Assembly: GCA_043758185.1 (NCBI GenBank)
Contig: JAYVNZ010000006.1
Location: 1 to 49,636, forward strand
Direction of reading: 5' to 3'
DNA from: Gemmatimonadaceae bacterium
Lineage (GTDB): Bacteria; Gemmatimonadota; Gemmatimonadetes; Gemmatimonadales; Gemmatimonadaceae
DNA length: 49,636 nucleotides
The position numbers were made by a program, and so were the translations under genes. The notes beneath the pieces were generated by a model. That model worked only from the letters and a program-made list of their open reading frames with translations, did no database searches and was not told the origin of the DNA. Positions 889 to 49,595 of the stretch are shown piece after piece; the stretch's first letter is position 1, and the number at the start of each line of letters is the position of its first letter.

Positions 889-1734
889 TCAGCGTTCCGC
901 CAGCCGACGCTCCACCTCGCCCAGCGCCTCGGCAGTAATGGGATAGGTGTGCTCGGCAGCGGGATACCGACCGGCACGCACGTCCTCCGCCCAGTGCGCC
1001 ACTGCGCCGCCGAGATCCGTGCGCGCTGAGGCATACTGGCGGACAAAGCGCGCCTGGCGCCCCTCGCTGAACCCGAGCAGGTCATGATAGACCAGCACCT
1101 GCCCGCCAGTCTCGCCGCCCGCCCCGATGCCGATCACCGGGATGCCGACACGCCGCGTGATGATGCCCGTCACCGCAGCCGGCACCGCCTCCACGATGAG
1201 CGCTCGACAACCCGCAGCGGCCAGGTCGTCGGCATCCGACACGATGCCCAACGCCTGCTCCGGGTCGCGGCCGCGCGCGCGATAGCCTTCGCGCGTGCGC
1301 ACGGACTGGGGCAGCAATCCAACATGCCCGAACACCGGGACGCCTGCCGCAATGATGGCGCGCACACGGGGAATCATGTCGCCGCCTCCCTCCAGCTTCA
1401 CCGCATCACAGCCGGCTTCACGTACGAAACGCAGTGCCGAGCCCACCGCGAGGGAGTCACTCTCCTCGTAGCTGCCGTAGGGCAGGTCGCCGATCACCGG
1501 AATGCCCGTCACCGCGCGCCGCACCGCGCGCGTGAGCATGAGCAATTCCTCAATGGTGATCTCGCGCGTTGACGCATGCCCCAGCACCGTCATCGCCGCC
1601 GAGTCACCTACGAGGATGACGTCCACGCCGCCGGCCATGGCGATGCGCGCCGACGGATAGTCGTATGCGGTGAGCATCACGATCGGTTGCGTGCGCGCGT
1701 AGAGGGCATCCAGCTGATCGAGCACTTCACTCAT
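889..1734 (-). CDS. panB: 3-methyl-2-oxobutanoate hydroxymethyltransferase (ketopantoate hydroxymethyltransferase)
   Basis: 281 aa. The N-terminus has MLTAYDYPSARI...VDVILVGDSAAMTVLGH, typical of PanB. The ATG at 1734 overlaps the panC stop (ATGA). Confidence 0.95.
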   Translation of the reverse strand: MSEVLDQLDALYARTQPIVMLTAYDYPSARIAMAGGVDVILVGDSAAMTVLGHASTREITIEELLMLTRAVRRAVTGIPVIGDLPYGSYEESDSLAVGSALRFVREAGCDAVKLEGGGDMIPRVRAIIAAGVPVFGHVGLLPQSVRTREGYRARGRDPEQALGIVSDADDLAAAGCRALIVEAVPAAVTGIITRRVGIPVIGIGAGGETGGQVLVYHDLLGFSEGRQARFVRQYASARTDLGGAVAHWAEDVRAGRYPAAEHTYPITAEALGEVERRLAER

Positions 1735-18051: not shown

Positions 18052-19293
18052 GTGTCTGATTCATTGGAACGTGTGCGCCACCTGCCGTTCTTCACTGAGC
18101 TTGCATCGCTCGAGGAGGATGATCCCTCGTGGCGTGTAGTGAGTGCGGGCCTGGTGTTGCTTCGCCTCGTGGATGCGTGGATCGAGGATGGCGCTGCTGT
18201 GGTCGCCGCTGATGGATGGGGTGTGCGCTCGGTGGAGGCGTGCCTCGAGGAGATGCCGGCGGGCATGCCTGCGCGCGCAATTCTCAGGAGTATGCTCACC
18301 ACGCTCGTTGCGGCGCGGAATGGCGACATGCATACGGTGGCGCCTCGCCTGATGGCCTACGCACGCACTCTCGACCTCGATGCGAAGTGGGCGCTGGCGG
18401 CAGACGTGTATGACACGGTGCTCGCGCATGTACATCCGGATGAGGAGAGCGAGGTGGTCGTCACAGCGCTGCTACGTCGGGGGCATTGCGTGCGCGAGCT
18501 TGGCGACCTGGCGGGCGCAACGGAGTCATTCAACACGGCAGCAGAGCTGGCACATCGCAGCGGCGACATGATCGGAACGCTTCGTGCGCGGATTGGCGAA
18601 GCGAGGATCGTGGTGGCGCGGGGAAATCTGCCCGCCGCCGATGTCATCCTCGAAGAGACCGCGCTCCGCGCCACCGAACACCAGCTTCTGGAAGTGCGTT
18701 CGATGGCGACGCATGATCGTGCGTCAATCGCGTACACGCGCGGGCAATACGACCGCGCGATCCGCTTCGCCTATGAGGCGTTGCACGACAGTGTGAATGA
18801 GATAGAGCGGGATCGTATCCTTGGCGCTCTCGCGGCTTCATTTTCCATGCTCGGCGTGAAATCGGCCGCGCGCGACGCGCACCTCATCCTCGCGGCGACG
18901 GCCCGCGACCAGTTTCAACGCTGGGCCGCGACGATCAACTTGATGGAGTTGGCAGCGGAGGATGTCGTCGAGGTGCAGTTCGGGCGGTATCGCAAGGAAC
19001 TGGAAGCGGCGGACCTGCCACCATTCCTGCGCACGCAGTTTGAACTGCACGTAGGCAGAGGGTTTCAGCTCTTTGGCCGTTTCGGCGAAGCACAGGCGTG
19101 GCTCAACCGCGCCCTCGGAAGCGCGACGTCACATTCCTTCAACCAGTTGATATTCGCCACCGAGACGGCCCTCGCGCAGAACGCAGCCCCACGCCAGCCC
19201 AGGGTACTGACGACTGCGTTCGACATTCCCCGTGACGTGAGGCTCATCGCCACGGAGTTGAGGGAAATGCGGAGGCTGACCGAAGCGATCTAA
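18052..19293 (+). CDS. hypothetical TPR-like helical repeat protein
   Basis: Helical repeat composition with TPR-like segments (e.g. RRGHCVRELGDLAGATESFNTAAELA, YTRGQYDRAIRFAYEAL). Start placed at GTG 18052, 7 nt after GGAG. The track start at 17977 lies in AT-rich, non-coding-looking sequence. Confidence 0.6.
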   Translation: MSDSLERVRHLPFFTELASLEEDDPSWRVVSAGLVLLRLVDAWIEDGAAVVAADGWGVRSVEACLEEMPAGMPARAILRSMLTTLVAARNGDMHTVAPRLMAYARTLDLDAKWALAADVYDTVLAHVHPDEESEVVVTALLRRGHCVRELGDLAGATESFNTAAELAHRSGDMIGTLRARIGEARIVVARGNLPAADVILEETALRATEHQLLEVRSMATHDRASIAYTRGQYDRAIRFAYEALHDSVNEIERDRILGALAASFSMLGVKSAARDAHLILAATARDQFQRWAATINLMELAAEDVVEVQFGRYRKELEAADLPPFLRTQFELHVGRGFQLFGRFGEAQAWLNRALGSATSHSFNQLIFATETALAQNAAPRQPRVLTTAFDIPRDVRLIATELREMRRLTEAI

Positions 19294-23884: not shown

Positions 23885-23987
<103 letters not shown>

Positions 23988-24025
23988 CAAGGGGTGAGGT
24001 TTGAGGGGTAAGGGGTGAGGGAACG
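23988..24025 (+). repeat. GGGGTRAG-type G-run block
   Basis: CAAGGGGTGAGGTTTGAGGGGTAAGGGGTGAGGGAACG has four G runs of at least 3 nt, separated by loops of 10, 3 and 3 nt. Confidence 0.8.
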
Positions 24026-24082
24026 AGCTTGGGCAAAGGGGTTTCGCGACAGGGCCCACCCTTTGCTATAGATTGGCCCATC

Positions 24083-31000: not shown

Positions 31001-31063
31001 GGGAGACGGGGGACAGCTCGCTCGCTGACGCTCGCTGGACGGGGGACGGGGGATGGGGGACAG
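31001..31063 (+). repeat. G-rich post-stop element, copy after tamB
   Basis: Sequence is GGGAGACGGGGGACAGCTCGCTCGCTGACGCTCGCTGGACGGGGGACGGGGGATGGGGGACAG. It starts 5 nt after the TAA at 30994-30996. Confidence 0.9.
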
Positions 31064-31912: not shown

Positions 31913-31964
31913 GGCGGGGGACGGCTCGCTCGCGTTCGCTCGCTGGACAGGGGACGGGGGACAG
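31913..31964 (+). repeat. G-rich post-stop element, copy after the OMP gene
   Basis: Sequence is GGCGGGGGACGGCTCGCTCGCGTTCGCTCGCTGGACAGGGGACGGGGGACAG. It starts 2 nt after the TAA at 31909-31911. Confidence 0.9.
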
Positions 31965-32641: not shown

Positions 32642-32716
32642 CCGTCCCCCGTCCAGTGAGCACCAGCGAGCGGGCCGTCAGCCGTCCAGCGAGCGAAGCG
32701 AGCGGGCTGTCCCCCC
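32642..32716 (-). repeat. G-rich post-stop element, copy after the PQQ dehydrogenase (inverted relative to the other copies)
   Basis: The minus strand reads (TA)GGGGGGACAGCCCGCTCGCTTCGCTCGCTGGACGGCTGACGGCCCGCTCGCTGGTGCTCACTGGACGGGGGACGG. The first G of the element is the last base of the TAG stop. Confidence 0.9.
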
Positions 32717-35053: not shown

Positions 35054-35461
35054 TTACCGCTTCCCCGCAGGCACCAGGTAGTCCTGTGACGCAATGCACT
35101 GCCAGCGGCCATCCAGCTTGACCCAGCTGTCCGTGTAGCGATACCTGTTGATGAATGGACCGCTCGCTCCCGACCCCTTCATCACGAGTATGCCGATCAC
35201 GACGGCTGCGTGGTCGTACACAAGCGCGCGCATGCGCTCATTGGATGCATGGCGCACGGTGTCGGTACCGGTGGTGAACGACTTGATCCCGGCTTCGCGC
35301 TCCATGACCCCCGTCTCATCCGAGTAGACCCACTTCGGCGCGGTCATGCGATGGAGGACGGCGGGGTCTCGCTTTACAACGGCCTGCGCCCACTCATTCT
35401 CGAGGCGGAACAGTTCGCGTTCGGCAGACTTGTTGGCTGTACCCTGCTGGGCCGTAGCCAT
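35054..35461 (-). CDS. DUF4440/SnoaL-like (NTF2-fold) protein; start uncertain
   Basis: Contains ELFRLENEWAQAVVKRDPAVLHRM...RYRYTDSWVKLDGRWQCIASQ. The conservative start is ATG 35461. The frame stays open upstream through a signal-peptide-like segment to ATG 35605. Confidence 0.75.
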   Translation of the reverse strand: MATAQQGTANKSAERELFRLENEWAQAVVKRDPAVLHRMTAPKWVYSDETGVMEREAGIKSFTTGTDTVRHASNERMRALVYDHAAVVIGILVMKGSGASGPFINRYRYTDSWVKLDGRWQCIASQDYLVPAGKR

Positions 35462-35492
35462 GTGCGGAGCAGACAGGAGCAGAACCAGCCAA

Positions 35493-35603
35493 AGCAGGTC
35501 CTTCGCTGCGCTCAGGACGACACGCGGGCGTTCATCCGAGAGCAGCTCCTGCGCCGCGCTCAGGACGACATTCGTGTGCTTCGCGGCGTGGAGGACGACG
35601 CGC
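35493..35603 (-). repeat. three diverged tandem units of the GTCGTCCTGAGCG-AGCGAAGGAC element
   Basis: Plus-strand units are AGCAGGTCCTTCGCTGCGCTCAGGACGACACG (35493-35524), AGCAGCTCCTGCGCCGCGCTCAGGACGACATTCG (35541-35574) and the degenerate GTGCTTCGCGGCGTGGAGGACGACGCGC (35575-35603). Confidence 0.85.
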
Positions 35604-35627
35604 ATTCGCTCCACACCCATGGAAGTC

Positions 35628-36140
35628 CTACTCGCCGAAATGCGGCTCATACGTTCCCTCCGAATCGTCCTGGAGGTGCAGGCGCTCGATGGTTCGCGCG
35701 CAGGTGTTCCAGCGGAGGATGGCATCGTCGTTCCCCGGCTTTCTCAGCTGCTCCGCACGCTCGAACGATGCCATGGCCGTGCGGAACAATCGCTCCGCAA
35801 TGGCATCGGCGTGCATGGCACCATGGGCCAGCTTTGTATGACCAAGCCGCTCATCGATGATGCCTGCGTAGTAGTGCTGCTGGTATTCGTCGGTAAGGCG
35901 GCCGCGTACCGCATGCGCGCGCTTCACCAGGTCGCTCGCCTCCGCACCGAACTGGTCGGTGAGCGACAGCAGGTACATCACGAGCACGGGTTGGTTGGCC
36001 GGATCGACCTCCAGTATGTCACGACAGATGCTTTCCGTTGCCCACGACTGGTTCAGCAGGCGATAGCGCTCGGCCTTCTGGATGGCGCGCGGAATGGCGT
36101 CGGCCGAGATGGTCTTGAGTTGCTGGATCGTTCTCTCCAT
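35628..36140 (-). CDS. hypothetical helical protein (170 aa) co-oriented directly downstream of sdhB
   Basis: ATG 36140 is preceded by GGAGG and lies 15 nt after the sdhB stop. Composition is balanced. No family recognised. Confidence 0.65.
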   Translation of the reverse strand: MERTIQQLKTISADAIPRAIQKAERYRLLNQSWATESICRDILEVDPANQPVLVMYLLSLTDQFGAEASDLVKRAHAVRGRLTDEYQQHYYAGIIDERLGHTKLAHGAMHADAIAERLFRTAMASFERAEQLRKPGNDDAILRWNTCARTIERLHLQDDSEGTYEPHFGE

Positions 36141-36155
36141 GATGCGCCTCCTGGC

Positions 36156-36995
36156 TCAGGCCTTTCGCGGACCGCGCACGAGCCGCACGAGCGCGCGGAG
36201 CGGATCGAAGTGCTGATCGACGACGCGCTCCTTGAGCGGAATGATCGCGTTGTCCGTGATGGTGATGTGCTCGGGACAGACCGTGGTGCAGCACTTGGTG
36301 ATGTTGCAATAGCCGATCCCGAAGTCCTCCTTCAGGGCGGTGGTGCGGTCCGCGATGTCGAGCGGGTGCATCTCGAGCGCCGCCGCATACACCAGGTAGC
36401 GCGGCCCGATGAACTCCTCGTGCTTGTGATGATCGCGGAGCACGTGGCAGACGTCCTGGCACAGGAAGCACTCGATGCACTTCCGGAATTCCTGCACGCG
36501 ATCGACGTCGCGCTGGTCGATGCGCCACGTACCATCGGGCGCATCGGGGGGTCGCGGCTTGAAGCGCGCGATGCGCGGCTTCACGCGAAAATTCCAGGAG
36601 ACGTCCGTCACGAGGTCGCGGACATGCGGGAACGCGCGCATGGGTTCGACGGTCACGGGTTCATTGGCCGGCAGGTCCTCCAGCCGAGTCATGCACATCA
36701 ACTTCGGCTTGCCGTTGATCTCGGCGGAACATGATCCGCACTTGCCTGCCTTGCAGTTCCAGCGCACGGCGAGGTCGTTGGCCTGGTCTGCCTGGATCTT
36801 GTGCACCGCGTCCAGCACGACCATGCCGTCGTTCGTCTCCGTGGTGTAGTCCTGGAATGCGCCGGTGCCGTCCGCTCCGCGCCAGATGCTGAACGTGCGC
36901 GCGCTGTGGCCCACTGCGGCATCCTGCGCGGACTGCGCCGCCGTATACGCATCCACGGCGCGGCCGCCAACATGGGATTCGAGCGGAGCGGTCAC
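36156..36995 (-). CDS. sdhB: succinate dehydrogenase/fumarate reductase iron-sulfur subunit
   Basis: Cys clusters are present: CKAGKCGSCSAEING..C, CIECFLCQDVC and CNITKCCTTVCP. The GTG start overlaps the sdhA stop (GTGA). Confidence 0.93.
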   Translation of the reverse strand: MTAPLESHVGGRAVDAYTAAQSAQDAAVGHSARTFSIWRGADGTGAFQDYTTETNDGMVVLDAVHKIQADQANDLAVRWNCKAGKCGSCSAEINGKPKLMCMTRLEDLPANEPVTVEPMRAFPHVRDLVTDVSWNFRVKPRIARFKPRPPDAPDGTWRIDQRDVDRVQEFRKCIECFLCQDVCHVLRDHHKHEEFIGPRYLVYAAALEMHPLDIADRTTALKEDFGIGYCNITKCCTTVCPEHITITDNAIIPLKERVVDQHFDPLRALVRLVRGPRKA

Positions 36996-38809
36996 GATTG
37001 CATCTCCTGGATGATGGCCTGGAGGTCGGCTGGCATGGGTGGAATCATCGCGCGCTCGAGCTGCATGCCGCCGTCGGCGCCCAGTCGCGTGACGTGATTG
37101 AACGTCGCAAATGTGGGATCCTTGTCCGGATAGTCATCGCGGAAATGGCCGCCGCGGCTCTCCTTGCGGGCGAGGGCGGAGCGCGCGATGGCTTCGGAGA
37201 TGATGAGCAGGTGTCGGAGGTCGAGCGCCGTGTGCCACCCCGGATTGTACTCGCGGTTGCCTGGTACGCCGACCTTGTCCGCCCGCTCCTTGAGCACCGC
37301 AATCTCGGAGAGCGCGCGCTCCATTTCGTCCTCGACACGCACGATGCCCACGTAATTCTGCATGGTGGTCTGCAACGACTCCTGTACCTGATAGGGGCCT
37401 TCCCCACCGCTGCCGCGCTCGAATGGCGCGAGGGCGCGCCGCGCGGACTCCTCGATCTGGGCGTCGTCGAGTGCGGAAGCAGCCTGGTCGCGCGCAAATG
37501 CCGCCGCGTACTGGCCAGCGCGCTTGCCGAAGACAAGGAGGTCGGACAGCGAGTTGCCGCCGAGCCTGTTGGCGCCGTGCAGGCCAGCCGCGCACTCGCC
37601 GCAGGCGAACAGCCCGGGGACCGTGGACATCTGGCTGTCGCCGTCCACGCGGATGCCGCCCATCACATAGTGCGTGGTGGGCCCGATCTCCATGGGCTCC
37701 TTCGTGATATCGATGCCGGCCAGCTGCATGAACTGGTGGTACATGCTCGGCAATTTCTTCTTGATGTGCTCGGACGCGTTGGGAAGTTTTTCCTTGATCC
37801 ACGAGATATCGAGGAACACGCCTCCGTGCGGCGAGCCGCGGCCTTCCTTCACCTCGCGCACGATCATGCGGGCCACATGGTCGCGCGTGAGGAGTTCCGG
37901 AGGGCGACGCGCATCCTTGTCGCCCTGCGTGTAGCGCCAGCCTTCCTCCTCGTTGTCGGCCGTCTGCGGCTTGTAGTTGTCGGGAATGTTGTCGAACATG
38001 AATCGCTTGCCGTCGCGGTTCCGCAGGACGCCCCCTTCACCGCGCACGCCTTCCGTCACAAGGATGCCACGCACGCTCGGCGGCCAGATCATGCCGGTGG
38101 GATGGAACTGCACGAACTCCATGTCCTGGAGTTCGGCACCGGCGAGGTAGGCGAGGGCCTGTCCGTCGCCCGTGTATTCCCAACTGTTGCTGGTGATGTT
38201 GTAGGCGCGGCCGATGCCGCCGGTGGCCATGACGACAGCCTTGGCGCGGAAGACCTTGAAGCGACCACGTTCGCGATCGTAGGCGAACGCACCGGCAATA
38301 CGGTCGCCGTCACGCAGCAGCGTGAGCACCGTGCACTCCATGTGCACGTCCATGCCTTCGTGGATACCATGATCCTGGAGGGTACGGATCATCTCGAGCC
38401 CCGTACGATCGCCAACGTGCGCGAGGCGCGGGTATCGATGACCGCCGAAGTTTCGCTGCAGGATGCGACCGTCGGGCGTGCGATCGAACAGCGCGCCCCA
38501 CGCTTCCAGTTCATTGACGCGTGCTGGCGCCTCCTGTGCATGGAGCTGTGCCATGCGCCAGTTGTTGACGTACTGTCCGCCGCGCATGGTGTCTGCGAAA
38601 TGGACGCGCCAGCTGTCGCGATCGTCCACGTTGCCCATTGCCGCTGCCACGCCGCCCTCGGCCATGACCGTGTGGGCCTTGCCGAGCAACGACTTGCAGA
38701 CGACGCCGACGGAGACACCGGTGGATGCCGCCTCGATGGCTGCGCGCAGGCCGGCGCCGCCCGCGCCGATGATGAGGACGTCGTGGTCTACGGTCTGGTA
38801 GTCAGTCAT
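36992..38809 (-). CDS. sdhA: succinate dehydrogenase/fumarate reductase flavoprotein subunit
   Basis: FAD-binding N-terminus (HDVLIIGAGGAGLRAAIEA), SLLGKAHTVMAEGG, HPTG and the C-terminal helical domain. 605 aa. Confidence 0.95.
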   Translation of the reverse strand: MTDYQTVDHDVLIIGAGGAGLRAAIEAASTGVSVGVVCKSLLGKAHTVMAEGGVAAAMGNVDDRDSWRVHFADTMRGGQYVNNWRMAQLHAQEAPARVNELEAWGALFDRTPDGRILQRNFGGHRYPRLAHVGDRTGLEMIRTLQDHGIHEGMDVHMECTVLTLLRDGDRIAGAFAYDRERGRFKVFRAKAVVMATGGIGRAYNITSNSWEYTGDGQALAYLAGAELQDMEFVQFHPTGMIWPPSVRGILVTEGVRGEGGVLRNRDGKRFMFDNIPDNYKPQTADNEEEGWRYTQGDKDARRPPELLTRDHVARMIVREVKEGRGSPHGGVFLDISWIKEKLPNASEHIKKKLPSMYHQFMQLAGIDITKEPMEIGPTTHYVMGGIRVDGDSQMSTVPGLFACGECAAGLHGANRLGGNSLSDLLVFGKRAGQYAAAFARDQAASALDDAQIEESARRALAPFERGSGGEGPYQVQESLQTTMQNYVGIVRVEDEMERALSEIAVLKERADKVGVPGNREYNPGWHTALDLRHLLIISEAIARSALARKESRGGHFRDDYPDKDPTFATFNHVTRLGADGGMQLERAMIPPMPADLQAIIQEMQS

Positions 38810-38831
38810 GGGTGCAGCCTGGGCGGGAAAA

Positions 38832-38910
38832 AGCAGGTCCTTCGCTTTGATGGAAGAGAGCAGGTCTTTCGCTTCGCTCAGGACGACAAGTGCTTCGCTC
38901 AGGACGACAA
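38832..38910 (-). repeat. GTCGTCCTGAGCG-AGCGAAGGAC element, 2.5 units, between sdhC and sdhA
   Basis: Plus strand reads AGCAGGTCCTTCGCTTTGATGGAAGAG AGCAGGTCTTTCGCTTCGCTCAGGACGACAAG TGCTTCGCTCAGGACGACAA. It lies 4 nt after the sdhC stop and 22 nt before the sdhA ATG. Confidence 0.9.
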
Positions 38911-38914
38911 GGCG

Positions 38915-39706
38915 TCATAGAATCCTCAAGTCGTGCCAGATGCCCATGGAGCAAAGGCGCACGTAGATGTCGGTAAAGGCAACCCAGAACAGGCTGGCCC
39001 ATGCCCAGTTCATGTGGCCGCGGTTGAGGCAGCTCACGCAGTCGTACGCCTTGCGGCGCACGGGGCGGCCGGCGAAGCGATCGAGGTAGCCGCCAACGAG
39101 GTGTCGCAGGGAATGACACCCGAGCGTGTAGCCACTCAGCAGGCACACGTTGATCGTGAGCACGAGTGAACCGACGCCAATGCCGAAGTGCTTCACCCCA
39201 CTCGCGTCAGCGAACGCGTAACCGCGAATGGCATCGAGGGCGAGGATGAACAGGAACAGCACTGCGGCGTAGAGGAAATAGCGGTGCACGTTCTGCAGGA
39301 TGAGCGGCAGGTGTCGCTCGCCGAGGTAGCTGTTGCGTGGCTCGCCTACGGAGCAGCCGGGCGGGTCGGCCCAGAACGCCTTGTAGTAGGTGCCGCGATA
39401 GTAGTAGCAGGTGAAGCGGAAGCCGGCGGGAAATGGCAAGATGAGCAGCGCCGGCGAGATGGGGGGCACGAACCACGGCGCCTTCGAGAACAGCGCGTGC
39501 GGCGAGGTTCCGACGATGAGCGGCGAGTAGAATGGCGAGAGGTACGGCCCGAATTCGAAGTGCGCGTTCTGGAACGCGGCCCACGTAGCGTAGGCGAGGA
39601 ACGAGCTGAGGATGACAAACGCGCCCACCTGCGGCACCCACCACGCATCGCGCCGCATCGTTTCGCCGAACTTTCGCCGTGTGAGCTGAACGACTTGCTG
39701 ACCCAT
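38915..39706 (-). CDS. sdhC: membrane anchor (cytochrome b-type) subunit of succinate dehydrogenase/fumarate reductase
   Basis: Polytopic membrane protein with conserved His residues, positioned first in the sdh gene order. The call rests mainly on context plus hydrophobicity. Start is ATG 39706, with GTG 39760 as an alternative. Confidence 0.7.
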   Translation of the reverse strand: MGQQVVQLTRRKFGETMRRDAWWVPQVGAFVILSSFLAYATWAAFQNAHFEFGPYLSPFYSPLIVGTSPHALFSKAPWFVPPISPALLILPFPAGFRFTCYYYRGTYYKAFWADPPGCSVGEPRNSYLGERHLPLILQNVHRYFLYAAVLFLFILALDAIRGYAFADASGVKHFGIGVGSLVLTINVCLLSGYTLGCHSLRHLVGGYLDRFAGRPVRRKAYDCVSCLNRGHMNWAWASLFWVAFTDIYVRLCSMGIWHDLRIL

Positions 39707-39777
39707 CGCGCGCGTCCCCGGAATTAGAGTGGCGCTAAGGTACGGGCGGCGCTGGGGCACGGGAAGAGCAACGAGGG

Positions 39778-39808
39778 AGCAGGTCCTTCGCTGCGCTCAG
39801 GACGACAG
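39778..39808 (-). repeat. GTCGTCCTGAGCG-AGCGAAGGAC element, single unit
   Basis: Plus strand reads AGCAGGTCCTTCGCTGCGCTCAGGACGACAG. It abuts the esterase stop (39811-39813) and lies upstream of sdhC. Confidence 0.9.
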
Positions 39809-39810
39809 GG

Positions 39811-41433
39811 TCACGGCACGGGGCGCAGGTATGGGGTCAGCGGGTTCGATGGGCCAAGCGAACGCAGCCCCTCGACAATCGACCTGGCATTCAGCTCAGC
39901 GCCGGCTGCACTCGAATGCAGGTTGGCGTCACCGAAGAGCGAGTCGACCGTTGCCATCGGCATCGTATCCATCTTCGACGACGCGATCTCCGTGAGATTC
40001 ACGAACGGTACGTGCTCGGCGCGCGCCGTCTCGTGCGCCCAGTCGGCGAAGCTGTTCCTGTTGCGGACAATCTTCCCGTCCTTCCAGAACTTGCGGGGCG
40101 TGAGCGAATTGATGATCGGTATTGCCCCCTTCGCGCGTACTTCGTTCACGAACTTCCGAATGTACCCGCCGAAGCTGTAGACCACCTCGCCCTTCTGCTT
40201 CGTGAGCAGGTTGTCGATGATTACGGAATCCGCGCCGATCCCGGGCAGCACACCCCGCGCCCGTGAGGTGTCGTTCACCGGGCTCGCGTCGTTGTGGCCG
40301 AACTCCAGCATCACGAGGTCGCCAGGCTTGAGCAGCGTGAGGACCTTGCTCCAATAGCCCTGAGTGATGAACGTGCGGGCGCTCAGTCCGCCGACGGCGC
40401 GATTGACGACGTTGATCTTCGTGGTGTCGAAGTACGGCGCGATGAAGTCGCCCCAGCCCCACTGGTTGCCCGCACCATCGCCACGACCGTTGCGCACCGT
40501 GGAATTGCCAACGAGATACAGCGTGGGCAGGTCGCGATTGGCTGGCCAGCCGAGTCCAAGACCCACCAGTTGATCGGCCGGCACCGTCGCGCCCTTTGCC
40601 GAGAGCCAGGCGCGCACCGGGCTCGGTCGCAGGGCCTTCAGCCCCGACACCACCGTTCTCGCGTGGACGTCTGCGCCGATGGCGTTGAAGTGCGTGTGGT
40701 CCTGCTCGTAGATCGACTTCACCCTGTCCTCGCCCATCGCCTGGAAGCGATCGGCCACGAGATTGGTGAGGTCGATGAACTGCACGCCGGCCGACTTGGC
40801 GATCTGCTGCGACCACAGGCTGTATCGCCCGGACCCGCGCTCGATCTGCCCGTTTGCCCAGATGTTGCGCACAGAGAGCGAGAGCACGATGGGCGTGGCA
40901 CCCTTCGCCTTCGTGTCGGCGATCATCTTCCGCATGTACCAGCCGAAGGAATGCACGACTTCATGCCGCTTCGTCAGCAGGTTGTCGATCGCGATGGAAT
41001 CGTCGCCCAGTCCGGGAATGGAGCCACGGGCGCGCGAGGTGTCGTTGATCGCGCCGGCATCGTTGTGGCCGAACTCGATGAGGACCACGTCGCCTGGCTT
41101 GAGGTCGGTGACGATCCTGTCCCACAAGCCTTCGGTGATGAAGGTGCGGCTGCTACGACCGCCGCGCGCTCGATTGGCGACGTTCACCTTCGTGGTGTCG
41201 AAGTAGTCCGCGAAGGGCACGCCCCATCCCTGCTGTCGTGCTCCCGCCCCGCGTGCCGCGGTGGAATTGCCGGCGATGAAGATGGAAGGGAGTGCCGGGT
41301 TGAGCGCGGAGGCGGGCGGCGCGGATCCCGCGGGGACGCCCCGCGAAGTTGGTGGTGTCGCGCAGGCGAGCGTGCCGGCGAGTGCCGCGAGCACAGCGGC
41401 GAACATCGAATGGCGTGCCTTCAAGCTGCCCAT
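39811..41433 (-). CDS. tandem-duplicated SGNH/GDSL hydrolase (rhamnogalacturonan acetylesterase-like), lipoprotein
   Basis: Two homologous halves are present (IFIAGNSTAARGAG...GHNDAG...DHTHFN and LYLVGNSTVRNGRG...GHNDAS...DANLHS). The N-terminus is MGSLKARHSMFAAVLAALAGTLAC. Confidence 0.85.
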   Translation of the reverse strand: MGSLKARHSMFAAVLAALAGTLACATPPTSRGVPAGSAPPASALNPALPSIFIAGNSTAARGAGARQQGWGVPFADYFDTTKVNVANRARGGRSSRTFITEGLWDRIVTDLKPGDVVLIEFGHNDAGAINDTSRARGSIPGLGDDSIAIDNLLTKRHEVVHSFGWYMRKMIADTKAKGATPIVLSLSVRNIWANGQIERGSGRYSLWSQQIAKSAGVQFIDLTNLVADRFQAMGEDRVKSIYEQDHTHFNAIGADVHARTVVSGLKALRPSPVRAWLSAKGATVPADQLVGLGLGWPANRDLPTLYLVGNSTVRNGRGDGAGNQWGWGDFIAPYFDTTKINVVNRAVGGLSARTFITQGYWSKVLTLLKPGDLVMLEFGHNDASPVNDTSRARGVLPGIGADSVIIDNLLTKQKGEVVYSFGGYIRKFVNEVRAKGAIPIINSLTPRKFWKDGKIVRNRNSFADWAHETARAEHVPFVNLTEIASSKMDTMPMATVDSLFGDANLHSSAAGAELNARSIVEGLRSLGPSNPLTPYLRPVP

Positions 41434-41452
41434 TCCGTCGAACACCCAGACA

Positions 41453-42208
41453 TCACGGATCCACCCCGATCTCCGCATACGTCTTCGCTACCCAGGCCTG
41501 GACGCCCTTCCGCGTGTAGACGTCCGGCTTCCGCGACTCGATCACCCCCGCAATCACCTCGGCCACTTCTTCGGCACTCTGCGAATCGGGAAACGATCGC
41601 GAATCGGGGCCACCATGCCGCGCATTGTTGCCGAAGTCCGTGCGCACGACACCCGGCGATACGATCGAGAACTGGATGCCGGGATGCGTCTCCTGGACCT
41701 CCATCCGGAAGTTCGCCGTCAGCGCATTCAGGAAATGCTTCGACGCACTGTACGCCGAGCGGATGAGCACCATCGGCATTCGCCCGAGCATCGATGAGAT
41801 GTTGATGACATGCCCAGACCCACGGGACTTGAAGTGCGGCAACACCTCCTGCATTCCATAGAGTGCGGACTTCACGTTCACCCGCATCACCTCGTCGATG
41901 TCGTCCTCCGTCAGATGGCTCGGCAAGGTGGTGATGCCCTGCCCCACGTTGTTGACCCAGACGTCGATGTGGCCGAACCGTGCGATGGCCTGCGCAACCA
42001 CGGCGCGCACGGACTCCCGGCTCGTCACGTCTGCCACGATCGGGAGTGCCTGCGCACCGCAGTGCGCGGCGACCTCGCGTAGCGCAGCCTCCCGCCGTGC
42101 CACGAGCACAAGTGAAGCGCCGCGCGACGCCAACAGCGCGGCGACCGCTGCGCCGATACCGCCGCTGGCGCCCGTAATGACAACCACGGTGTCCTTCATG
42201 TCGCTCAT
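41453..42208 (-). CDS. short-chain dehydrogenase/reductase (SDR)
   Basis: Has VVVITGASGGIGAAVA (TGxxxGxG), NNVG and YSASK (YxxxK). The ATG overlaps the upstream peptidase stop (ATGA). Confidence 0.9.
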   Translation of the reverse strand: MSDMKDTVVVITGASGGIGAAVAALLASRGASLVLVARREAALREVAAHCGAQALPIVADVTSRESVRAVVAQAIARFGHIDVWVNNVGQGITTLPSHLTEDDIDEVMRVNVKSALYGMQEVLPHFKSRGSGHVINISSMLGRMPMVLIRSAYSASKHFLNALTANFRMEVQETHPGIQFSIVSPGVVRTDFGNNARHGGPDSRSFPDSQSAEEVAEVIAGVIESRKPDVYTRKGVQAWVAKTYAEIGVDP

Positions 42209-47205: not shown

Positions 47206-48153
47206 TCACGTCGTAGCGGCCCGCTCTGCTCGCACGTGGCACAGCCAGTTGTGCCGGTCTTCACTCTTGCCGTGCACGAGATCCATGAACGTGCGCTGGA
47301 GCACCTTGGTCACCTCGCCCGTGCGACCGATGCCGACCTTGATCTTGTCGACGCTGCGCACTGGCGTGACTTCGGACGCGGTGCCGGTAAGGAAGATCTC
47401 GTCTGCGGTGTACAGCACGTCCCGCTGGAGCGGCTGCTCGTGCACCTCCATTCCCGCATCGCGCGCGATGGTGATGATGCTGTCGCGCGTTATGCCGGGG
47501 AGCAACGTGCCGTTGGCCGGCGTGGTATAGATCGCGCCCTTCTGCACGACGAACACGTTCTGGCCTGACCCTTCGCTGATCATGCCATCCGGGCCGAGCG
47601 CAATGGCTTCGTCGTAGCCGTTGGCCAGGGCTTCCATCTTGATGAGCTGCCCGCCGAGGTAATTGCCCGCCACCTTGGCCATGGACGGCGTGGTGTTGGG
47701 CGCCATGCGATGCCAGCTGGAGACGCAGGCGTCGGCACCGTTCTCCATTGCATGGTCGCCGAGGTACGCGCCCCAGGGCCAGCAGGGGATGAAGACTTCC
47801 ACCGGGCTGTCGAAGGGCACCATGCCGGCGGCGCCGTACCCGCGCAGCACCATGGGGCGCACGTAGCACGAATCGAGGCCGTTCTTCTCGACCAGTTCGC
47901 AGGTTGCGGCCACGATCTCGTCAACGGAGTACGGCACATCCATGCGATAGATCTTGCACGAATTCATCATGCGCTGGAGGTGATCCTCCAGCCGGAAGAT
48001 GGCGGGCCCGCGCGGGGTGGCGTAGCAGCGGATGCCTTCGAACACGGACGACCCGAACTGCATGGAATGCGAGAGCACATGGACGTTCGCGTCCTGCCAC
48101 GGGATGAACTCTCCGTCGCGCCAGATCCACTCGGTGGGTTGCAGCTTGGCCAT
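47206..48153 (-). CDS. ilvE: branched-chain amino acid aminotransferase (class IV)
   Basis: The N-terminus is MAKLQPTEWIWRDGEFIPWQDANVHVLSHSMQFGSSVFEGIRCY, with class IV aminotransferase blocks throughout. ATG 48153 lies 7 nt after GGAG; the track start is a TTG two codons upstream. Confidence 0.93.
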   Translation of the reverse strand: MAKLQPTEWIWRDGEFIPWQDANVHVLSHSMQFGSSVFEGIRCYATPRGPAIFRLEDHLQRMMNSCKIYRMDVPYSVDEIVAATCELVEKNGLDSCYVRPMVLRGYGAAGMVPFDSPVEVFIPCWPWGAYLGDHAMENGADACVSSWHRMAPNTTPSMAKVAGNYLGGQLIKMEALANGYDEAIALGPDGMISEGSGQNVFVVQKGAIYTTPANGTLLPGITRDSIITIARDAGMEVHEQPLQRDVLYTADEIFLTGTASEVTPVRSVDKIKVGIGRTGEVTKVLQRTFMDLVHGKSEDRHNWLCHVRAERAATT

Positions 48154-48191
48154 CGTCAATCTCCGTTGATTTCAATAAAAAACAAACAAAA

Positions 48192-48220
48192 ACAGGTCCT
48201 TCGCTTCACTCAGGACGACA
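48192..48220 (-). repeat. GTCGTCCTGAGCG-AGCGAAGGAC element, single unit, overlapping the M20 peptidase stop codon
   Basis: Plus strand reads ACAGGTCCTTCGCTTCACTCAGGACGACA. On the minus strand it is followed by CTGTTTTTGTTTGTTTTTTATTG (48168-48193). Confidence 0.9.
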
Positions 48221-49595
48221 CCAGGGACAGCTCGTCCCACAGCGTGGCGACTGCTCGCATGCCGGTGGTGAAATTGTCCATGCTCATCCATTCGTCCGGC
48301 GCATGCGCATTCTCGCCGGGCAGCCCGAAACCTACAAGAAGCACCGGGGCGCCGAGTATCCGCTCGAAATCCCCGACCACCGGGATGGAACCGCCCTCGC
48401 CGGTGATGACCGGCTCCCTGCCGAAGGCCGCACGCAGTGCGCGGCGTGCAGCGTCGAACAGCGGACCGGTGAGCTCCGCGCGCCATGGTCGGCCACCGTG
48501 CAGGTGCGTGACGTTTACCGTCACGCCAGACGGCGCGACACGTGCCACGTGGGCCTTCATGAGCGACTCGATTACAGCGGGATCCTGGCCGGGCACCAGT
48601 CGGCAGCTCACCTTGGCCATGGCCCTGGCCGGTAACACGGTCTTGGCACCCTCCCCCGTGTAGCCGCTGAGCAGGCCGTTCACCTCGCAGGTGGGACGCG
48701 TCCACAGCTGCTCGAGAATGGAATACCCCTCCTCACCGCCGAGTGCCACCGAGCCGGTCTCGGCACGGAAGTGCTCTGCGTCGAAGGGGAGGGCTTTCAT
48801 CTGCTCACGGACGTGTGCCGGCCATTCGGCCACGGCATCGTAGAAGCCTGGGATGGTGACGCGCCCGCTGGGATCGTGGAACGTGGCCAGCACACGCGCG
48901 AGGGCCATGGCCGGATTGACGACGGCGCCGCCGTAGCTGCCCGAGTGGAGGTCCTGCGCGGGGCCTTGTACGTCGAGCTGGAAGTAGGCGAGCCCCCGGA
49001 GTGACGACAGGATGCTGGGCAGGCCGGGCGCAAACATGGCCGAGTCGGAGATCACCACCGCGTCGCAGGCAAGCTCGCTCGCGTGCGCCTCGATGAACGG
49101 AGCCAGGTGCGCGCTACCCACCTCCTCTTCACCTTCGGCAAGGACGATCACGTTCACCGGCAGCCGGCCGCGCGCCGCGAGATGGGCCTCGAGGGCCTTG
49201 ATGTGCAGGAACAACTGTCCCTTGTCGTCCACGGACCCGCGGGCATACACGCGGCCGTTGCGGATGGTGGGTTCGAAGGGCGGCGAGGTCCAGAGGTCGA
49301 GCGGCTCGGCGGGCTGGACGTCGTAATGTCCGTAGACAAGCACGGTGGGCGCGCCCGGGGGGGCGCCGCGCCACTCGCCAACAACCACTGGATGGCCCGC
49401 CGTGGCGTGCACCGTGGCGGAGAGACCGGCGGCTCGCAGGGAGTCGGCGGTCCACTCGGCAGCGCGGATCGTGTCCGCGTCGTGCTCGGAGCGCGCGCTC
49501 ACGCTGGGAATCCGGAGGAATGCAAAGAGCTCGTCGCGGATTCGTGCGTCGTGGGCGGTGAGCCAGGCGTGGAGATCAGGCGGAACTGAGGTCAT
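48210..49595 (-). CDS. M20-family metallodipeptidase
   Basis: Has HYDVQPAEPLDLWTSPPFEP...GRVYARGSVDDKGQ, the metal-ligand blocks (EGEEEVGS) and a dimerisation-domain insert. 461 aa. Confidence 0.9.
   Translation of the reverse strand: MTSVPPDLHAWLTAHDARIRDELFAFLRIPSVSARSEHDADTIRAAEWTADSLRAAGLSATVHATAGHPVVVGEWRGAPPGAPTVLVYGHYDVQPAEPLDLWTSPPFEPTIRNGRVYARGSVDDKGQLFLHIKALEAHLAARGRLPVNVIVLAEGEEEVGSAHLAPFIEAHASELACDAVVISDSAMFAPGLPSILSSLRGLAYFQLDVQGPAQDLHSGSYGGAVVNPAMALARVLATFHDPSGRVTIPGFYDAVAEWPAHVREQMKALPFDAEHFRAETGSVALGGEEGYSILEQLWTRPTCEVNGLLSGYTGEGAKTVLPARAMAKVSCRLVPGQDPAVIESLMKAHVARVAPSGVTVNVTHLHGGRPWRAELTGPLFDAARRALRAAFGREPVITGEGGSIPVVGDFERILGAPVLLVGFGLPGENAHAPDEWMSMDNFTTGMRAVATLWDELSLVSS

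Follow-up and report, generated by a model that had tools for sequence, protein, structure and literature searches.

Chenal et al. (Chenal 2025, PMC11893778) describe the Ssn family (cd10448) as single-domain GIY-YIG nucleases of about 94 aa, the genes for which are typically flanked by "Ssn-related motifs" (SRM). According to these authors, SsnA binds the NTS hairpin CGTCATTCCCGCGMAVGCGGGAATCYRG as ssDNA only and on one strand only, binding depends critically on the C after the palindrome, and the three bases 5' of the palindrome matter for cleavage, which takes place a few nucleotides upstream; they also report that Nm SsnA does not bind RNA (PMC11893778). Cleavage has been demonstrated only for the Neisseria and Wolbachia proteins, each on its own motifs. 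A further group of short hairpins, the CGTC-tagged REPs, was defined by Di Nocera, De Gregorio and Rocco (Di Nocera 2013, PMC3733652). Their tag is often TGTC, their 8- to 9-nt stem begins with A-T and T-A pairs, and a short unpaired tail follows. They occur as singles and head-to-head dimers, are never associated with RAYTs, and form a superfamily that includes Rickettsia RPE-4/-6 and Neisseria dRS3, the latter in the CGTC-1 group (Di Nocera 2013, PMC3733652). Here, we analyzed a 49,636-nucleotide stretch of a Gemmatimonadaceae contig (JAYVNZ010000006.1), referred to as the window, and conclude with a probability of about 0.82 that a short repeat in it is a member of this CGTC-tagged REP and SRM (NTS-like) class, that its partner is an Ssn ssDNA nuclease, and that its copies are recent insertions.

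The original prediction, made from the window alone, placed the repeat at four loci, which was confirmed by a consensus scan, shuffles, and a covariance model. The 30-nt consensus TGTCGTCCTGAGCGMAGCGAAGGACCTGCT with up to three mismatches has five matches in the window, all on the minus strand (35493-35522, 35541-35570, 38859-38888, 39778-39807, and 48191-48220), and had matches in 0 of 100 dinucleotide shuffles. The covariance model R1, which was derived from the cross-phylum units described below and run on both strands with filters off, recovered the same five matches (42.6, 42.6, 38.0, 37.0, and 17.4 bits) and nothing credible beyond them, the next match having an E value of 0.48. In total, the four loci of the window, all on the minus strand, hold five full units and three that are partial or degenerate. 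A GTCG rather than a GTCW head is present in four of the five matched units and in both remaining 5' heads.

Three of the loci lie at gene ends. The M20 peptidase gene (48210-49595, minus strand) is followed by a class IV aminotransferase gene (about 47206-48153, minus strand), and the full unit at 48191..48220 (minus strand; R1 38.0 bits at 48195-48219), after which a T-rich tract begins, encloses and supplies the peptidase stop codon TGA at 48212-48210. The full unit at 39778..39808 (minus strand; R1 42.6 bits at 39782-39806) begins 4 nt past the stop (39813-39811) of a GDSL lipase gene (39811-41478, minus strand) and lies 71 nt ahead of the sdhC ATG (39706). The lipase gene itself contains an internal 268-nt direct repeat (40197-40464 and 40968-41235, 73% identical), which corresponds to its two GDSL domains. 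The third locus, at 38832-38910, occupies the 105-nt spacer (38810..38914, minus strand) between the sdhC stop (38917-38915) and the sdhA ATG (38809) in the operon of sdhC (38915-39706), sdhA (36992-38809), and sdhB (36156-36995), all on the minus strand. In the sense direction, it comprises a 5' partial unit ttgtcgtcctgagcgaagc (38892..38910, minus strand), which begins 4 nt past the sdhC stop and ends within the hairpin loop, the dinucleotide "ac," a full unit (38859..38889, minus strand; one mismatch; R1 37.0 bits at 38863-38887), a spacer of 11-12 nt, and a 3' partial unit agcgaaggacctgcttttt (38828..38846, minus strand) followed by TTTTT. Both partial units were read directly. The stem of the full unit is damaged, AGGAC having become AAGAC, which gives a C.A mismatch.

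The fourth locus is a three-unit array downstream of a 170-aa ORF (35628-36140, minus strand), where it reads in frame in the 5' region of a DUF4440 gene (35054-35650, minus strand). Its last unit, TGTCGTCCTGAGCGCAGCGAAGGACCTGCT (35493..35522, minus strand), has no mismatches (R1 42.6 bits at 35497-35521); TGTCGTCCTGAGCGCGGCGCAGGAGCTGCT (35541..35570, minus strand) is degenerate, with three mismatches (R1 17.4 bits, E = 0.057); and cgtcgtcctccacgccgcgaagcacacgaa (35571..35600, minus strand), read directly and not detected by R1, is strongly decayed, having lost its stems while keeping the head and GCGAAGC. Since the units, like the genes that flank them, all lie on the minus strand, the description of sense copies was accurate, and the positions given relative to the stops and starts of sdhC, sdhA, the GDSL lipase, and the M20 peptidase proved correct on the sequence. 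The proposed location between co-directional genes applies to the sdhC/sdhA, GDSL, and M20 loci, but not to the array at 35.5 kb, which is not simply intergenic.

The unit reads tGTC(G/A)-TCCT-GA-GC-GNA-GC-GA-AGGA-(C/T)-CT in sense and consists of a 5' head tGTC, a hairpin, a conserved C directly 3' of the palindrome, and a CT tail. It had been described as a 5-bp inverted repeat around an 11-nt loop; the stem is as stated, but the loop is structured, with the 5-bp outer stem continuing into a tandem G.A/A.G pair, two G-C pairs, and a GNA triloop. The apex GCGNAGC with its free middle base, common to all units, is that of the d(GCGNAGC) mini-hairpins of the DNA-structure literature, in which a GNA triloop is closed by a sheared G.A pair. 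These mini-hairpins are a structural motif and not a genetic element, and we infer their relevance to the units.

The pairing is supported by covariation. When the search was anchored on the head, the center, and the 3' C and the outer stem was left free, the outer-stem pairs ATCCT/AGGAT (177), ATTCT/AGAAT (36), ATGCT/AGCAT (12), and GTCCT/AGGAC (11) were found, along with rarer ones including ATTCC/GGAAT (9), ACCCT/AGGGT (6), and ACCCC/GGGGT (6). Likewise, when the search was anchored on the outer stem and the center was left free, the center GA-GC-GNA-GC-GA was accompanied by the compensated variants GA-AC-GNA-GT-GA and GA-CC-GAA-GG-GA, in which the inner GC/GC is replaced by AC/GT or CC/GG, and all four bases were seen at the N of the loop. 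Across 77 distinct units, 95.4% of cells were paired, compared with 84% in shuffles and 20-50% in slid registers; both-sided changes occurred at all seven base pairs (7/7), and the observed covariation was equaled in 0 of 500 shuffles. The hairpin is under selection. While the minimum-energy fold of the intact units in ViennaRNA is the canonical hairpin, both as DNA and as RNA (-7.7 to -9.1 kcal/mol as RNA), its stability is no greater than that of shuffles for either molecule (z about 0), so that folding energy alone is no evidence. In the sdh-spacer copy, with its damaged stem, the minimum-energy fold differs from the canonical hairpin.

To describe the spread of the repeat, the core TCCTGAGCGNAGCGAAGGA, with 18 specified bases, was scanned in one genome per species and was found in at least 119 stretches. 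The carriers include Acidobacteriota, Gemmatimonadota, Chloroflexota, Verrucomicrobiota, Planctomycetota, Bacteroidota (several Hymenobacter isolates), Ignavibacteriota-like Melioribacteraceae, Omnitrophota, Patescibacteria, Nitrospirota, Bdellovibrionota, WOR-3, Bacillota, and Pseudomonadota, and IMG/VR viral contigs are also among the matches listed. The 25-nt motif thus extends over at least 13 bacterial phyla and into viral contigs. Although their bases were unspecified in the search, the positions -5 to -1 are T, G, T, C, and A in 225-278 of 318 copies (71-87%), and position +2 is C in 282 of 318 (89%). Because these unspecified flanks are conserved, the cross-phylum matches are homologous and not due to chance, and with a near-identical motif in so many phyla, this subfamily may be the most widespread SRM type. 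Many copies pair up as inverted doublets separated by a variable spacer; others stand alone, and some are preceded by tandem 5' half-units. When genes were called crudely as longest ORFs, 31 sense and 16 antisense single copies were counted between co-directional genes, the window's own five included, a count too weak to yield an orientation rule. With inverted doublets also common, the sense orientation was not upheld for the family as a whole.

The gene associated with the repeat in other genomes encodes a GIY-YIG nuclease. In a Chloroflexota MAG (L092), a 96-aa ORF with a single GIY-YIG domain (Pfam PF01541) lies between two inverted copies, and in Hymenobacter glaciei (L061), a homologue of the L092 protein is encoded exactly between two copies. 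This family of proteins of about 95 aa comprises at least 7,997 clusters at E values up to 1e-5, and its members are about 70-75% identical across phyla. In 80 metagenomic loci centered on homologues of the gene, the core (up to three mismatches) lies within 250 nt of the gene in 43 and on both sides of it in 19. By tally, about 80 core matches fall in the ~41 kb of flank versus 17 in the other ~218 kb, and the copies upstream of the gene divide into about 31 in sense and 9 in antisense. With up to four mismatches, a tGTCA-stem-GAGCGNAGCGA-stem'-TCT unit with a covarying stem is found in most of the 80 loci. Conversely, the gene was found only twice in ~2 Mb of motif-centered loci, and it is absent from the 49.6-kb window; few genes among many motif copies should be expected for a dispersed repeat with few master genes.

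The link to SsnA came from a tblastn search with the L092 protein against a plasmid collection, which matched a chromosome-sized gonococcal record (L324, NZ_CP119140.1). There, a 94-aa ORF with Y6, Y17, and E64 has nine perfect NTS copies within 1 kb on either side, and the L092 protein is 47% identical to it end to end. These three residues are the ones mutated by Chenal et al. (PMC11893778). Given the identity, the residues, and the NTS flanks, the motif-associated nuclease is an SsnA homologue by those authors' criterion. In other genomes, the repeats therefore flank single-domain Ssn-type GIY-YIG genes, as judged by identity to gonococcal SsnA, and the element is placed in the CGTC-tagged REP/SRM class because its motif flanks the gene for a protein 47% identical to the NTS-surrounded SsnA. 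The gonococcal record itself, 2.17 Mb of Neisseria gonorrhoeae filed as a "plasmid," is evidently a chromosome and almost unannotated. A search of the PDB retrieved no Ssn structure, the only match being a weak one to the UPF0213 protein 1zg2. As a separate observation from a single case, a Planktothrix agardhii plasmid (L325, NZ_LR882964.1) carries an Ssn homologue at 18847-19131 that shares 66% identity with the L092 protein; its neighbors are an MmeI-type restriction-modification gene on one side and DISARM drmA on the other, a defence-island context.

Comparing the unit with the NTS, the two share a common layout, in which an oriented hairpin has a GTC-containing head 5' and a conserved C directly 3'. 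The NTS reads CGTC-ATTCCCGC-GMA-GCGGGAAT-CYRG and the unit tGTC-ATCCTGAGC-GNA-GCGAAGGAT-CTs, so that each has a YGTC head, an A/T, a palindromic hairpin with a GMA or GNA apex, a C after the palindrome, and a pyrimidine-rich tail. Similarly, both are mostly intergenic and clustered, and both flank a single-domain GIY-YIG gene of about 95 aa, often on both sides. However, the arms of the unit are longer and contain the tandem G.A internal loop, the window copies close with G-C (GTCG...GGACC) instead of A-T, and the host belongs to the Gemmatimonadota, with no known link to competence, where cleavage would be proposed by analogy. The published SRM string, HGTCWYN(0-2)YYVSBRHN(0-5)WNVSBRGN(0-2)RNCYNB, matches NTS controls but no unit of the window or of the cross-phylum consensus, and it has 0 matches beside the 80 Ssn-like genes. 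It fails on this subfamily because of the longer arm with the GA.AG internal loop; the string is an operational pattern, hand-built from 29 genomes, and not a definition of the class.

The unit also agrees with the CGTC-tagged REPs in its TGTC or CGTC tag, 9-nt arms, and short tail, in its occurrence as singles and head-to-head dimers with no associated RAYT, and in the first stem pairs, which are A-T and T-A in most copies, with G-C in the window. In contrast, the tail is CT(c/g) where CCA is usual, the stems described for those REPs are fully paired, and the 2013 survey found its REPs in five phyla, with Gemmatimonadota and Acidobacteriota carriers not listed. The suggestion of a REP/BIME-type dispersed hairpin element at gene boundaries is thus borne out by the hairpin, the singles and doublets, and the gene-end sites. 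Literature searches by exact sequence or peptide found no papers.

Two other repeat families are present in the window. The first, a G-rich family of the form CCCCCGTCCAGCGAGCG-N3-GCGAGCGAGCTGTCCCCC, occurs at 31007-31053 (minus strand), 31915-31961 (minus strand), and 32643-32715 (plus strand). Like the SRM unit, it has a CGTC head and a GAGCG...GCGA center, and part of its core (32690-32702) is touched by R1; neither a hairpin nor homology could be clearly established for it. It is plausible that this family is another CGTC-type repeat akin to the SRM unit, as had been suspected. The second is a tandem array of about 12 copies of the heptamer GGTCAGC, with GATCAGC variants, at 23896-24026 (plus strand), flanked by G-rich GGGGAC/GGGGTGAG motifs.

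SdhC homologues assign the window to the Gemmatimonadota. We then compared the loci with those of four syntenic relatives (SdhC 81-92% identical). The sdhC-sdhA spacer is 7-9 nt in the relatives versus 105 nt here, a gain of about 95 nt, and no copy of the motif was found in about 65 kb of the four relatives. The short spacer and the absence of copies imply that all four loci are lineage-specific insertions. At the sdhC/sdhA junction, the 5' and 3' half-units joined together make one intact unit, and both contain the AAGC that borders, on each side, the 44-nt segment bearing the full unit; judging from this arrangement, the locus looks as though one copy had inserted itself within the loop of an older one. 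The M20 peptidase ends in ...WDELSLVSS* here versus ...WDELGASP* in one relative (L320), the last four codons being different. The DUF4440 gene retains its ancestral start, MSR(T/I)S (MSRIS here), with an ATG at 35650 that overlaps the stop of the upstream gene, as in relatives. Its three-unit array reads in frame as ...VVLHAAKHTNVVLSAAQELLSDERPRVVLSAAKDL... directly before the hydrophobic core of the signal peptide, and the ORF is 198 aa long versus 159-161 aa in relatives, the extra ~38 aa being repeat-encoded.

Rearranged copies also occur elsewhere. Tandem arrays of 5' half-units, cut in or at the hairpin loop and followed by one full unit, are present in L194 (a viral contig, 1020-1200, minus strand), L325 (the Planktothrix plasmid, 1300-1410, plus strand), L036, L052, and L071; examples are tttgtcatcctgagcgcagc repeated eight times with a 20-nt period and ctgtgctgtcattctgagttctc repeated three times with a 23-nt period. 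Only clear tandem arrays are cited, as a count of orphan half-units is confounded by variants with other inner hairpins. The truncation point of the L194 and L325 half-units is that of the window unit at 38892..38910, which points to breakage or template switching that recurs at the apex of the hairpin. It is conceivable, at less than even odds, that the tGTCAT...GAGCGNAGCGA...ATCT hairpin and the Ssn protein of about 95 aa form an active, horizontally spreading mobile unit, a GIY-YIG counterpart of REPIN/RAYT, with the hairpins as non-autonomous copies. If so, the insertion sites of this unit would include gene ends, the loops of copies already present, and even coding sequence, with the frame kept, and arrays of 5' half-units cut in the hairpin loop would be left behind. 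We know of no GIY-YIG enzyme that acts as a transposase.

The repeat could instead be a selected intercistronic RNA element that stabilizes, processes, or attenuates mRNA and so sets the expression of sdhC relative to sdhA/B, and of the other gene pairs. Such a role would agree with the sense orientation of all window copies relative to co-directional genes, the RNA hairpin as the minimum-energy fold of intact units, the weak excess of sense copies elsewhere, and the observation that REPs lie mostly downstream of coding regions and are plausibly transcribed (Di Nocera 2013, PMC3733652). However, relatives with the same operon and a spacer of 7-9 nt have no element, so that the sdh operon works without it, and the copy in this operon has a broken stem and a noncanonical fold. 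The family as a whole occurs in both orientations and in inverted doublets, fold energies do not exceed those of shuffles, and Nm SsnA does not bind RNA (PMC11893778). Moreover, the units have no terminator-like geometry, and Rfam gave no match at the gathering threshold in the whole window and only noise at E values up to 10 in 35300-40000. We consider an RNA-level function unlikely, and the intercistronic role originally proposed for the sdh operon was not supported, given the relatives, the broken stem, and the lack of an intrinsic terminator. Side effects on expression are possible, for example a loss of translational coupling between sdhC and sdhA.

Far less probable is a classical REP/REPIN mobilized by a RAYT, the partner first suggested. 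The GTAG-type REP, BIME, and REPIN-RAYT systems of E. coli and Pseudomonas do resemble the present units, being short extragenic palindromes with a conserved 5' tetranucleotide as oriented tag that occur as singles, inverted doublets, and mosaics; their ssDNA hairpin is likewise recognized by a small dedicated enzyme whose gene it flanks, and their presence differs between relatives. However, the head of the unit is (T/C)GTC(A/G) and not GTAG, and the gene between the copies, across genomes, encodes the SsnA homologue of about 95 aa, a hydrolytic GIY-YIG nuclease, and not a Y1 transposase of the HUH type with a covalent intermediate. No RAYT gene is flanked by CGTC repeats (Di Nocera 2013, PMC3733652). 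That the copies are Rho-independent terminators or attenuators sharing sequence by chance is scarcely tenable: although T-runs follow two of them (CTGCTTTTT at 38836-38828 and CTGTTTTTGTTTGTTTTTT after the 48195-48219 unit), the T-run begins 3-4 nt past the stem, the apparent loop is 11 nt, a scan for intrinsic terminators, which have a G+C-rich stem with a 3- to 8-nt loop and an immediate T-run, flags 0 units, an essential operon harbors one of the copies and an ORF one of the arrays, and conservation of a 25-nt sequence across phyla is not a trait of terminators. A resemblance to the hammerhead ribozyme (CUGA...GAA) was dropped on inspection, as core positions are missing.

For the preferred reading, an Ssn-associated repeat of the CGTC-tagged REP/SRM class, the most likely mechanism, by analogy with the Neisseria homologue, is as follows. 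The hairpin would form when the sense strand (here minus) turns single-stranded, as may happen during replication, repair, or the entry of transforming or conjugative DNA. The small single-domain Ssn GIY-YIG nuclease would bind the hairpin together with the flanking C and cut a few nucleotides upstream, and, as in Neisseria, it would be inactive on the complementary strand, duplex DNA, and RNA. Cutting would influence how incoming or replicating ssDNA recombines and perhaps also how the repeat itself spreads. The nuclease gene is typically flanked by the motif, in the manner of an insertion sequence, and the pair has spread over many phyla. The window copies were inserted recently and in this lineage specifically, at gene boundaries, and owe their co-transcription solely to their positions. 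The copies in the sdh operon are most likely a tolerated by-product of the spread of the repeat and not a selected regulatory device.

Overall, the original interpretation was right about a REP-like class and wrong about the RAYT partner and the proposed function. The class is already known; what is added is a subfamily that escapes the SRM string, its recent insertion, and tolerated insertions in coding sequence. Ssn-associated repeat counts are probably underestimates, because the SRM pattern misses a large cross-phylum subfamily. In annotation, the repeat yields spurious ORFs and odd protein termini, as foreseen for its chance translations: VVLSAAKDL is in frame in the DUF4440 ORF, HPERSEGS-type tails are another example, and some database Ssn proteins end in the translated repeat, with C-terminal tails such as DPSLRSG. 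The copies missing from relatives, the nested sdh junction, and the recurring half-unit arrays provide evidence of mobility for repeats whose continuing movement has so far only been hypothesized in the literature. Insertion has been tolerated within an essential operon, at the 5' end of one gene, where the signal peptide is encoded, and at the end of another, whose stop codon the repeat now supplies. A repeat that litters soil and sediment phyla, among them Acidobacteriota, Gemmatimonadota, Chloroflexota, Bacteroidota, and Planctomycetota, thereby gains a name and a likely partner enzyme.
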